A DNA stretch of 63,711 bases, counting the filler, from Reclinomonas americana ATCC 50394 (lineage: Eukaryota), in the NCBI GenBank assembly GCA_048213135.1. It is 9 parts of 5 records of this genome, joined end to end, with 100 filler letters (N's around TTAATTAATTAA, not from the genome) between each part and the next. Parts side by side here need not be neighbours in the genome. Positions count along the whole stretch, not along the records: positions 1 to 19,655 come from PS015176.1; 8 more parts are not named here. One strand, 5' to 3'. The notes beneath the pieces are model-generated. The model saw only the letters and a program-made list of their open reading frames with translations. It searched no databases and was not told the DNA's origin. This document shows, in pieces, positions 638 through 3,191 of the stretch (position 1 is the first letter of the stretch; each line of letters starts with the position of its first letter). Made by a program: the position numbers and the translations under genes.

Positions 638-3191
638 NNNNNNNNNNNNNNNNNNNNNNNNNNNNNNNNNNNNNNNNNNNNNNNNNNNNNNNNNNNNNNN
701 NNNNNNNNNNNNNNNNNNNNNNNNNNNNNNNNNNNNNNNNNNNNNNNNNNNNNNNNNNNNNNNNNNNNNNNNNNNNNNNNNNNNNNNNNNNNNNNNNNNN
801 NNNNNNNNNNNNNNNNNNNNNNNNNNNNNNNNNNNNNNNNNNNNNNNNNNNNNNNNNNNNNNNNNNNNNNNNNNNNNNNNNNNNNNNNNNNNNNNNNNNN
901 NNNNNNNNNNNNNNNNNNNNNNNNNNNNNNNNNNNNNNNNNNNNNNNNNNNNNNNNNNNNNNNNNNNNNNNNNNNNNNNNNNNNNNNNNNNNNNNNNNNN
1001 NNNNNNNNNNNNNNNNNNNNNNNNNNNNNNNNNNNNNNNNNNNNNNNNNNNNNNNNNNNNNNNNNNNNNNNNNNNNNNNNNNNNNNNNNNNNNNNNNNNN
1101 NNNNNNNNNNNNNNNNNNNNNNNNNNNNNNNNNNNNNNNNNNNNNNNNNNNNNNNNNNNNNNNNNNNNNNNNNNNNNNNNNNNNNNNNNNNNNNNNNNNN
1201 NNNNNNNNNNNNNNNNNNNNNNNNNNNNNNNNNNNNNNNNNNNNNNNNNNNNNNNNNNNNNNNNNNNNNNNNNNNNNNNNNNNNNNNNNNNNNNNNNNNN
1301 NNNNNNNNNNNNNNNNNNNTCCCGCTGCAGTAGGGCCCTGACCACGTACAGTGGAGATGTCAACGCTGCGGTCAACCAGTGACGGATGCGACGACAGAGG
1401 AGTGTCGCTATCACCCTGTTGCGTTTGCAGGCCCTGCTCGTTCACGTGGCGCCATCTTGCACGCATGCTCACTGCCCTCGCAGGGAGTGAGTGCTTCTAG
1501 GTTGTCGCTTCACGCCATCATCCTACTGACACGTGTGCGCACTCTCCTCGATGTGTTCTCGCCTCTGTTCGATGCAGCAAGTTGCGTCGGCGGGTAGCAT
1601 AGTGCTGTCATGTCTGTGTGATTTACTCAACTAGTATCGTTTCATGCCTGTGCGCAGCAAGTTGAGTTACTCGTCTCGTGAGCAGCAATATGTTTGTGTA
1701 ATTTGTTGCTGATATCCGATGCACCCCAACATCGTGCGTGGAGCAGGCGGTGAGTGCATGCGTGCTGTTCCCTCTTTTGATGTGCCTGCTCACCATTCGG
1801 TCCCGTGCGCAGGTGGTGCGTGAACTGTTGCCTCTGTGTGGTCTTGTTACCGCGTTTGTTTTTTGGTTGTTTGTTCACTGTGGCGACCCTGCTCGCTTCT
1901 GCATGGATGGCTGCAATCGTAGCGGGTGAGTGAATATGTGTCCGTGTTTGTGTCACAATGAAAAAGACTGCGTTGCTCACGTGATGCGCAGCCGGTGAGT
2001 TCTTGTGTAGGCGCCATTGAATCTTGTTGAGCTACTACTGACGGGCACTCCTTGGTATCACGCGATTCCCAATCACAGCCGGTGAGCTGATGAGATATGA
2101 GTGCATTAATGTTCTCTGGCTGCCATTGCTTGCTCACTGACTTTCTCTTTCTCATGGTCGCAGTCGGTGAGTGATTTCCAGCTGCGAAACCCTTGATTCG
2201 TTCTCACATTGAATGTTTGGCTGACGCTCGACTACGATGAAATACAGGAGGTACGTGCCTGTCGTAGTCATATCCGTGGCCGCAGCGTCACGTGTCGGCT
2301 CACCGTTCAATCGTGTGTCTGTCTGTTCCTTTTTCTGCCGATTCGGTACAGATGGTTCGTTCCCTAGTCCTTGCTCACACTGTGCGTCTTTCGCTACTGA
2401 CTGGCAACGGGCACAGGGGGTCTGTTACTGGGGATACGATGTGGGCATGCTACTATTTGTCTGCTTGTCTGTGCTATCTCGCATGTGTGTCGTCAAACAT
2501 TCCTCTTGGTCTCTGCGATAGTGGTACGGGAGTAGTTCCTTTGTCCCCTTGCTTTGTTCGCTGTGATGTGTGGGTTCTGCATCGTGTTTCTGTTTGTGCC
2601 TCACAGATTGACTTCTTGCATGTTCGGACGGCAGGGAGTTGCGTTGTTGTGGCTTGGTGTGCTGTTTATCTTGTCTTCTCACTCACACGTACATTTATCG
2701 TTTGCCTGACAGACCGTTGCGTGGCGTAGCGTATTTCCCAGCTGCTCATCCTGTTTACTCACTCACACATGGCCACACGGCGGCGTTGGAACACCGACAG
2801 GCGGTACGTCTGCTTGGTTCTGTCTCTGTTCTCCCGCGCCCATTATCTCACTCGACCCGATCCACCACTACGTCTTTGCTGTGATGTGAGCAGGAGGTAT
2901 GTAATTCTGCAAGTATGGTGTGCTGGGAGTTTTTGATTCTCATTTCTTTTCCCCTTCGCAGTGGGTACGTTTTCGCCAGCAAACAACATCGTTGTTGTAG
3001 CCCGACTCATGTTGTTGTTCGTGCTCGTCTACTTCCTCGCTGGTACTGTACAGACGGTGAGTTCTTGCAGTGTTCATCGTGCTGCGGCGCACTGCCCACA
3101 CTCACAGTGGCACACTGCACAGTGGACGTGTTGCAATCAATCAGTGGGACCGCAGGCTGTTGGATGTGTTGTCGGCAAACACGTGCGGTGA
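1..3191 (+). CDS. 5'-partial gene: polyQ/Ser-Pro region, short coiled coil and a C-terminal Cys/His zinc-finger (REXO1-N/Btk-motif-like) whose loop is encoded by 19 micro-exons
   Basis: Phase-0 exons at 1-147, 223-303 (GSLSDLVRALAQQNRSANEDREQLQLQ) and 368-442. After the gap, exon 1352-1417 reads WRCQRCGQPVTDATTEECRYHP. Micro-exons span 1484-3056. Last exon 3123-3191 reads WTCCNQSVGPQAVGCVVGKHVR*. The first micro-exon, GGA, supplies the G of YHPG. Further exons may lie in the gap. Confidence 0.8.
546..637. repeat. (GA)n microsatellite in an intron, running into an assembly gap; representative of many GA/CT/CA tracts in the window
   Basis: Seen directly; similar tracts near 5040, 5175, 9490, 10530, 13410 and 32445. 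Confidence 0.95.
1418..3122 (+). other. Tandem array of 20 spliceosomal introns separated by 19 micro-exons (18 x 3 nt, 1 x 2 nt)
   Basis: YAG|NNN|GT units: GGA 1484, CAA 1578, CAA 1658, GCG 1747, GTG 1813, CGG 1923, CCG 1992, CCG 2079, TCG 2164, GAG 2248, ATG 2352, GGG 2417, TG 2522, GGA 2635, ACC 2713, GCG 2801, GAG 2894, TGG 2962, ACG 3054. Donors match those of ordinary introns in the window. CTGAC/CTCAC branch-like motifs precede many acceptors. Confidence 0.85.

Follow-up and report, generated by a model that had tools for sequence, protein, structure and literature searches.

The 63,711-nucleotide (nt) stretch of Reclinomonas americana ATCC 50394 analysed here (GenBank assembly GCA_048213135.1; hereafter the window) is a draft in which 6264 positions, in 31 runs, are N; the G+C content of the sequenced part is ~53%. 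Between positions 1352 and 3191 of its plus strand lies the apparent 3′ end of a protein-coding gene, in which two flanking exons carrying the Cys and His ligands of a putative zinc module are separated by 18 units of the form YAG/NNN/GT (slashes in such strings mark splice boundaries). Read as a gene model, each unit is a micro-exon of a single codon. The 66-nt exon at 1352–1417 translates as WRCQRCGQPVTDATTEECRYHP and provides four ligands in the order C, C, C, H. The same order recurs in the terminal exon at 3123–3191, which translates as WTCCNQSVGPQAVGCVVGKHVR before a TGA stop. The micro-exons are exactly 3 nt long in 18/18 cases and every junction is in phase 0. Joined, the exons amount to 189 nt with no internal stop, corresponding to a spliced peptide of 62 residues. 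All 19 introns of the model start with GT and end with AG (18 CAG, 1 TAG); 18 of them span 62–107 nt, and the remaining interval is 215 nt long. The individual features, with donor and acceptor and the branch motif given for each intron, are the following.

1352–1417 (+): upstream flanking exon, 66 nt, phase 0-0, C-x2-C-x11-C-x2-H, ending ...CRYHP
1418–1483 (+): intron 1, 66 nt, GTTGCG...CAG, CTCAC 12 nt from the 3′ end
1484–1486 (+): micro-exon 1, GGA (Gly); then intron 1487–1577, 91 nt, GTGAGT...CAG, CTGAC
1578–1580 (+): micro-exon 2, CAA (Gln); then intron 1581–1657, 77 nt, GTTGCG...CAG, no strict branch motif, CTCAA only
1658–1660 (+): micro-exon 3, CAA (Gln), same codon as its neighbour; then intron 1661–1746, 86 nt, GTTGAG...CAG, CTGAT
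1747–1749 (+): micro-exon 4, GCG (Ala); then intron 1750–1812, 63 nt, GTGAGT...CAG, CTCAC
1813–1815 (+): micro-exon 5, GTG (Val), in CAG/GTGGTG, with a donor directly at the acceptor
1816–1922 (+): intron after micro-exon 5, 107 nt, GTGCGT...TAG, no strict branch motif, TTCAC and CTCGC present
1923–1925 (+): micro-exon 6, CGG (Arg); then intron 1926–1991, 66 nt, GTGAGT...CAG, CTCAC
1992–1994 (+): micro-exon 7, CCG (Pro); then intron 1995–2078, 84 nt, GTGAGT...CAG, CTGAC
2079–2081 (+): micro-exon 8, CCG (Pro), same codon as its neighbour; then intron 2082–2163, 82 nt, GTGAGC...CAG, CTCAC and CTGAC
2164–2166 (+): micro-exon 9, TCG (Ser); then intron 2167–2247, 81 nt, GTGAGT...CAG, CTGAC
2248–2250 (+): micro-exon 10, GAG (Glu), tandem acceptor CAGGAG; then intron 2251–2351, 101 nt, GTACGT...CAG, CTCAC
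2352–2354 (+): micro-exon 11, ATG (Met); then intron 2355–2416, 62 nt, GTTCGT...CAG, CTCAC and CTGAC
2417–2419 (+): micro-exon 12, GGG (Gly); then interval 2420–2634, 215 nt, GTCTGT...CAG, CTCAC
2520–2521 (+): defective unit tag/TG/GTACGG, read from the sequence
2635–2637 (+): micro-exon 13, GGA (Gly); then intron 2638–2712, 75 nt, GTTGCG...CAG, CTCACTCAC
2713–2715 (+): micro-exon 14, ACC (Thr); then intron 2716–2800, 85 nt, GTTGCG...CAG, CTCACTCAC
2801–2803 (+): micro-exon 15, GCG (Ala); then intron 2804–2893, 90 nt, GTACGT...CAG, CTCAC
2894–2896 (+): micro-exon 16, GAG (Glu), tandem acceptor CAGGAG; then intron 2897–2961, 65 nt, GTATGT...CAG, CTCAT
2962–2964 (+): micro-exon 17, TGG (Trp); then intron 2965–3053, 89 nt, GTACGT...CAG, CTCAT
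3054–3056 (+): micro-exon 18, ACG (Thr); then intron 3057–3122, 66 nt, GTGAGT...CAG, CTCAC
3123–3191 (+): terminal exon, CC-x10-C-x4-H, ending GC..G.H, with the stop TGA at 3189–3191

The first flanking exon is preceded by a CAG acceptor (1349–1351) with CTGAC at 1337–1341, and because an in-frame TAG is located at 1331 the exon cannot start earlier in this frame. Of the intron before it, the 5′ part falls in an N gap (638–1319), upstream of which Gln-rich, heptad-like exons with three short introns are found; these may belong to the same gene as the zinc module. At the opposite end, the stop falls five codons past the last ligand, and a convergent gene on the minus strand, encoding a RhaT/EamA-like membrane protein, has its own stop at 3268–3270. 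Consequently, the zinc-domain gene cannot extend far beyond 3191. As only 76 nt separate the two stops, the 3′ untranslated regions of the two genes probably overlap. Three-frame translation of 1418–3122 revealed no other exon candidate with an FH[DE], P.FH or [WY].CC motif or a Pfam family, and likewise no Pfam family was found for the open reading frames (ORFs) on the opposite strand at 1645–2031 and 1850–2203.

The initial annotation of this locus had placed all Cys and His residues of the motif in the two flanking exons, with only the loop between HP and WxCC split into single codons, and this description was borne out: all eight ligands lie in the flanking exons, none is encoded by the 18 micro-exon codons, and the array sits exactly between the two Cys/His clusters. 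It had also noted that the first micro-exon restores YHPG, and GGA indeed adds the Gly after ...CRYHP. The zero-length-exon options that it described are present in the sequence as CAGGAG/GT at 2245–2252 and 2891–2898, and as CAG/GTGGTG at 1810–1818. Taken alone, the lack of Cys and His among the 18 codons is not significant (chance ~0.3), nor is the lack of stop codons among the triplets (chance ~0.4).

Splice signals and divergence of the units

The pattern YAGNNNGTNNGY has 37 matches on both strands of the whole window, compared with 33.15 ± 5.9 in shuffled sequences. Fourteen of these 37 matches are clustered on the plus strand within 1481–3062, where 0.41 would be expected (Poisson P = 3e-17). 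When a slightly wider donor definition was applied to the array region, a spacer of 3 nt gave 14 matches and each of the other spacers from 0 to 15 gave 0–4. No second train of single-codon units was seen in the 63.7-kb window. As a separate observation, the minus strand at 29247–29320 contains cag/ACG/GTAAGT, followed 67 nt later by cag/T/GTGAGT and then by CTGAC...CAG; another gene may have two micro-exons here, of 3 and 1 nt, unless the match is due to chance.

The branch motif CT[CG]A[CT], with its A 8–60 nt from the 3′ end, is present in 17/19 introns. In 1000 shuffles it occurred in 3.6 introns on average and in no more than 11 of 19, and on the reverse complement in 2/19. The donors are GTGAG[TC] in 8/19 introns, with G at +5 in 14/19 and T at +6 in 13/19; GTTGCG and GTTGAG donors account for 5/19, all following a non-G at −1. 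The last position of the triplet, i.e. position −1 of the donor, is G in 13/18 cases versus 34% G at third codon positions (P = 0.001; baseline of 949 codons from four Pfam-supported ORFs of the window). The micro-exon triplets thus bear a splice-site signature.

An independent yardstick was provided by an NDUFAF6-like gene on the minus strand (57585–58415), which was modelled via tblastn with five homologues together with the sequence itself. Removal of four introns of 59, 60, 70 and 80 nt gives an uninterrupted frame that follows the homologues. These introns have CAG acceptors, branch motifs (CTCAC and CTGAC together, CTGAC, CTGAT and CTTAC) and the donors GTTACC, GTTGTG, GTTCGT and GTGCGG. 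Since their length and signals match, the array introns look like ordinary introns of this genome, on a sample of four, and GTT-type donors like the GTTGCG of the array are in use here. If anything, the array donors look stronger than the four donors of the NDUFAF6-like gene. The 5′ splice-site consensus appears unusually loose, with a GTT start in three of these four donors. The NDUFAF6-like ORF itself shares 26–40% identity with plant and fungal proteins (10 matches). In combination, the anatomical features make what we regard as a strong case, drawn from sequence, for 19 functional introns.

The bodies of the introns have diverged almost completely. Among 171 intron pairs, 2638–2712 versus 2716–2800 reaches a local score of 31, above the maximum of 24 in 300 shuffles, and these two introns are the only adjacent pair that is clearly alike; the sole other pair above the shuffle maximum is a non-adjacent one that includes the 215-nt interval and scores 27. 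Adjacent pairs scored 15.4 on average, non-adjacent pairs 14.4 and shuffled sequences 13.3. A minisatellite was considered and rejected, as Tandem Repeats Finder (TRF) shows no period of unit length, and the repeat search of the array recovered splice-site words only. GT, AG and branch motifs have thus been kept while the intron bodies drifted to background, which argues that every unit is used. A small nucleolar RNA host gene was likewise considered and rejected: Rfam gave no match in the window at the gathering score, a single weak SNORD94 match at E ≤ 1 (19.7 bits versus 60) spans an exon, and a C-like and a D-like box occur together in 1/19 introns.

An artefact of assembly or sequencing was also considered. 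The draft does contain the 31 N runs, one of which ends 33 nt before the first exon, and a near-perfect inverted repeat elsewhere in the window looks like an assembly problem. The 1.84-kb region of the array is free of N, however, and collapse or expansion is unlikely because the region is not repetitive; moreover, we know of no artefact that would produce 19 introns, each different and each with the right signals. We consider an artefactual origin very improbable.

The 215-nt interval 2420–2634 deserves separate mention. At ~2520 it contains tag/TG/GTACGG, with 2 nt in place of 3, which would divide the interval into ~100 and 113 nt. A live counterpart is found at 2962 (cag/TGG/GTACGT), and the defective unit likewise begins TGG. 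It would appear either that this is a dead unit, or that one G is missing from a G run in the draft assembly. Should 2500–2540 read TGGGTACGG, the unit would be a 19th live micro-exon (Trp); should it read TGGTACGG, the unit would be dead and its skipping obligatory, and a donor would then be able to pair with the next-but-one acceptor at this locus.

The predicted zinc module

The ligand pattern of the spliced product is C-x2-C-x11-C-x2-H and CC-x10-C-x4-H on either side of the loop. CHORD motifs are characterised by the consensus strings C-x-Y-H-P-G, W-x-C-C and G-C-x2-G-x-H, and all three of these, which contribute to the likeness to CHORD and BTK domains, are present here. The module differs from CHORD proteins in being a single copy at the very C-terminus and in lacking a Pfam match at threshold. 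In CHORD-II of Rar1, one zinc site is formed by Cys159, Cys164, Cys178 and His218 and the other by His181, Cys196, Cys197 and Cys213 (PMC2935968). The ligand order in the R. americana module, C,C,C,H,C,C,C,H, is that of Rar1 CHORD-II, and the C-x2-H and C-x4-H spacings are equal. The array encodes a loop of 21 residues free of Cys and His, from His to Cys-Cys, versus 14 residues in Rar1 CHORD-II. Since His181 and Cys196/197 of Rar1 bind the same zinc, this stretch would be a zinc-closed loop, provided that the fold is CHORD-like.

Profile and feature searches gave sub-threshold matches. Against Pfam BTK (PF00779) the last exon gave E = 0.096 and 13.1 bits versus a cut-off of 24, covering profile positions 12–25 of 30. 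In the Atlas feature search with the first exon, CHORD (0.82, 0.80) and BTK clusters were among the top four named matches (0.79–0.82), which are a lead only, as these scores are under the 0.9 level that counts; the second half, i.e. the last exon, gave no usable match in this search. The domain may accordingly be described as CHORD/BTK-like with two C3H motifs, on matches that are sub-threshold, and its family membership is left open.

The initial annotation had compared the motif to REXO1-type exonuclease N-termini and to the Btk motif. The link to REXO1 was upheld in part: Rex3/REXO1 proteins do carry a single CHORD of two C3H motifs, but it adjoins the C-terminal DEDDh domain and is not N-terminal (PMC12129344). 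A REXO1/Rex3-type exonuclease is nevertheless ruled out at this locus, given the stop five codons past the last ligand and the convergent gene 76 nt further on; the gene is not of the REXO1 type because no exonuclease domain can follow. In addition, no exonuclease family was found among the 145 ORFs of ≥135 amino acids that were scanned in the window.

Searches with contiguous read-through translations were also performed. The read-through translation of 3003–3188 gave no match among longer proteins, and in metagenome contigs 594 pattern matches were obtained, 0 of which were confirmed; this query retrieved no predicted protein that includes the terminal exon. When the read-through translation of 1352–1501 was compared with 1.84 billion representatives, a single match to a 3500-residue repeat protein was obtained (E = 9e-16). 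It was rejected, as its ~26-bit repeat matches add up, span the exon–intron boundary and lack the Cys and His residues.

These results have to be considered together with the possibility that the sites are not used as 18 exons at all. The interval would then be one long intron with relict or decoy sites, or the locus a decaying or unexpressed 3′ end, and the message would be without most or all of the triplets. The defective 2-nt unit is a sign of decay or skipping, the triplets show splice-site bias and no clear coding constraint, the absence of stops among them is of the kind expected by chance, and the read-through searches brought up neither a homologue nor an annotation of the exons. Conversely, an intron of 1705 nt would be far outside the 59–107 nt of the other 22 introns measured, and if the sites were idle, GT, AG and branch motifs would not have survived in 17–19 of 19 units amid such divergence. 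Skipping of all units would leave H-x3-CC in place of a loop that is 14 residues long in Rar1 CHORD-II, and would drop the Gly of YHPG. Both flanking exons are, furthermore, intact with all eight ligands. We therefore regard unused sites as unlikely, while not negligibly so.

Possible splicing route, origin and surroundings of the array

On balance, we lean slightly towards the reading that 1352–3191 represents the 3′ end of a real protein-coding gene, the last domain of which is a divergent CHORD/BTK-like two-zinc module with its loop on 18 (possibly 19) single-codon exons, and that 19 U2-type introns are removed from it stepwise and constitutively. Recognition would take place across each intron in turn (intron definition). 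Base pairing of U1 with a 5′ splice site covers positions −3 to +6, of which −3 to −1 are exonic; in the array, each 3-nt exon would supply precisely these three positions for the donor that follows, with the preceding AG directly abutting the exon. Because factors on adjacent introns would collide, neighbouring introns are expected to be removed stepwise. Removal could proceed in either direction, since with each ligation the next donor would come to lie behind a long upstream exon, or the previous acceptor ahead of a long downstream exon, and the outcome would be mainly one mRNA with all micro-exons included. Retention shifts the frame or meets a stop for 16/19 introns, for which reason one main product with all triplets would be expected; retention of the other three (1418–1483, 1750–1812 and 3057–3122) gives an in-frame insertion.

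Several observations weigh against this assignment. Searches of the full-text literature on micro-exons and very short exons that were aimed at short-exon arrays gave only single 3-nt exons or two per gene and no run of single-codon exons, with subscription journals and supplementary figures outside their scope, and we are not aware of a spliceosome for which processing of 3-nt exons in series has been demonstrated. The strict branch motif is missing in 2/19 introns, where the near-variants CTCAA, and TTCAC and CTCGC, are present. The unit at ~2520, as assembled, breaks the frame if used, and yet keeps a TAG acceptor and a GTACGG donor. With regard to the domain, four of the six ligand gaps differ from those of Rar1 CHORD-II (x2 versus x4, x11 versus x13, x21 versus x14 and x10 versus x15). 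PF04968 (CHORD) was not reported by Pfam for either 22-residue half even at E ≤ 10, and a PDB sequence search with the last exon gave 0 matches; the first exon gave 10 weak PDB matches (E = 0.09–9.4) to generic zinc ribbons (rubredoxin, eS27, LIM-type knuckles) and none to CHORD or BTK. No orthologue or second copy was found in the protein and metagenome searches with read-through translations. Finally, duplication of units is thinly supported, as the in-register identity of adjacent versus non-adjacent units does not differ significantly (P = 0.075, 0.14).

The initial annotation had proposed a different possible role for the array, in which combinatorial skipping would diversify the loop: each skip would lose one residue in frame, giving a family of zinc loops that vary in length and sequence. 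As all 18 units are symmetric (phase 0-0), any subset of micro-exons would indeed be in frame. Three units have zero-length options (the two CAGGAG/GT and the CAG/GTGGTG), and if the defective unit is real, pairing with the next-but-one acceptor must work across the 215-nt interval. In the micro-exon genes of Schistosoma, skipping of symmetric micro-exons gives protein variation. A precedent is thus at hand in these genes, the symmetric exons of which measure 3–81 bp (PMC10526429). However, the array has uniformly strong rather than weak splice sites. Its introns are short and have branch motifs of their own, which fits intron definition, a mode in which exons are not commonly skipped, and outside animals intron retention, rather than exon skipping, is believed to prevail (PMC6142364). 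The product looks intracellular, as the end of a Gln-rich and probably coiled-coil protein (if the exons beyond the N gap belong to it), and does not resemble a protein that is secreted or exposed at the surface and under selection to diversify. Frequent and harmless skipping should moreover have allowed decay, yet 18 units are intact. A diversifying role consequently appears improbable to us.

Likewise, we see only a slim chance that the array acts as a gate or timer, whereby 19 serial splicing steps would tie output of the zinc domain to spliceosome capacity or time, with a failed step leading to a truncated or degraded product. The frameshifts and stops that follow retention of 16/19 introns would suit such a role, as would the 3-nt spacing, which would force stepwise removal, and in plants the introns next to micro-exons are often detained, their splicing following polyadenylation (PMC8831610). 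This proposal is, on the other hand, purely inferential, with no sign of regulation; no second gene with such an array occurs in the 63.7-kb window, and a neutral ratchet explains persistence equally well. That the array is a working device of either kind and not a frozen accident, be it a combinatorial loop generator with up to 2^18 in-frame subsets or a 19-step kinetic gate, is in our estimation distinctly unlikely. If it were one, the spliceosome would have to handle long runs of single-codon exons routinely.

Returning to the constitutive reading, the probable origin of the array is either repeated gain of introns in a loop pinned by zinc or duplication there of a unit made up of an intron and its adjacent codon; a loop with both ends held by zinc could tolerate extra residues. 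Traces that may relate to such events are found in a few places, among them the one intron pair that is clearly alike, the members of which are neighbours. Identical codons are adjacent in two cases (CAA, CAA and CCG, CCG), and the CAA units have a short in-register block in common. Micro-exons 17 and 18 (TGG, ACG) recur as TGGACG at the start of the terminal exon (3123–3128), and TRF detected a 15-nt tandem duplication at 3097–3125 (CACACTGCACAGTGG, 2 copies, 93% match) that comprises the last acceptor and TGG. This duplication makes a second CAG/TGG 15 nt upstream and in frame, which as an alternative acceptor would add five residues, including one His. Once present, a unit could hardly be removed except by a precise deletion, since one damaged site would be enough for the intron to be retained, with a frameshift or stop, and the array may therefore persist without a function of its own. 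The locus thus bears on local intron multiplication, by repeated gain or unit duplication in a permissive loop, and would show how such structures could become irreversible without being useful.

The remainder of the window contains a number of features that are unrelated to the array. A tandem segmental duplication (10325–16892 versus 17474–22688; offset ~5.8–7.1 kb, 76–97% identity in blocks) covers ORFs with NHL and TIG/IPT matches. The inverted repeat consists of arms at 21745–23446 and 24063–25762 (98–99% identity, ~1.7 kb) around an N gap (23458–24032), and is either a real palindrome or an assembly artefact. On the plus strand, a 526-residue open frame at 6359–7936 encodes long Ala/Lys/Asp-rich repeats of ~11 residues (...AKDVAGAVADKVE...) reminiscent of LEA-type proteins, for which no Pfam family was found. 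A tyrosine-phosphatase ORF shares 27–36% identity with proteins mostly from animals, among the best 120 of 1454 matches.

Relation to known micro-exons and intron duplications

Very short exons are known in several lineages, mostly as isolated cases. In animals, single 3-nt exons are described in RPS24, cytohesin-1 and MAP4K5, and a fungal gene with two 3-nt exons has been reported (PMC5639578). For plants, constitutive coding micro-exons of 1–15 nt with well-kept donors have been demonstrated by RNA-seq and reverse transcription PCR; one rice gene has two that are adjacent, 5 and 12 nt long (PMC8831610). The R. americana units resemble these in being tiny and, as we read them, constitutive exons amid ordinary introns, and differ in number, the plant exons being single or paired where the array has 18 in succession. 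In Arabidopsis and peanut, RAR1, which encodes a CHORD protein, has a 3-bp exon 2 (PMC8430224); here the likeness is in exon size and in its being a CHORD gene alone.

With respect to rows of micro-exons, the closest comparison is offered by the micro-exon genes of Schistosoma, in which most micro-exons are 6–36 nt long. Symmetric exons of 3–81 bp, in rows and with long introns between them, make up most of their coding region (PMC10526429). The likeness is a coding row of symmetric micro-exons, 18/18 in phase 0-0 in the present case, and is one of architecture alone: the Schistosoma genes have introns of up to 5 kb and encode secreted, disordered proteins, whereas here all exons are 3 nt, the introns measure 62–107 nt and the row covers one zinc-domain loop.

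For the origin of the array, precedents are found in the 82 'SGD' introns of fungi, which are copies within the same gene (PMC3609843), and in intron gain by tandem duplication (PMC3443670, PMC4974935). One adjacent intron pair that is still similar constitutes the likeness to the fungal same-gene duplications. The difference from same-gene duplication or introner-like gain is that 17/19 introns are without detectable kinship, so that the gains would be either old or independent.

The proposed order of events also invites comparison with recursive splicing. In Drosophila, zero-length ratchet sites (AG/GT) are used in long introns. Both processes involve stepwise removal in which ligation regenerates a 5′ splice site at the new junction. 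The Drosophila sites leave nothing in the mRNA and lie in very long introns; in the R. americana array 3 nt would remain after each step, and the introns rank with the shortest. Were the constitutive reading true, an intron-definition spliceosome would need no exon body past the three exonic bases of the 5′ splice site, and the locus would be a natural substrate for studies of intron-removal order and of steric exclusion between adjacent sites. Similar arrays may hide in other intron-rich protist genomes, as gene finders and RNA-seq aligners would miss them. Judged by its sequence, the array may be considered an extreme new case among micro-exons and micro-exon arrays, and if confirmed by transcripts, with 19 splicing reactions in 1.7 kb for ~20 residues, it would be the most extreme micro-exon architecture of which we are aware.

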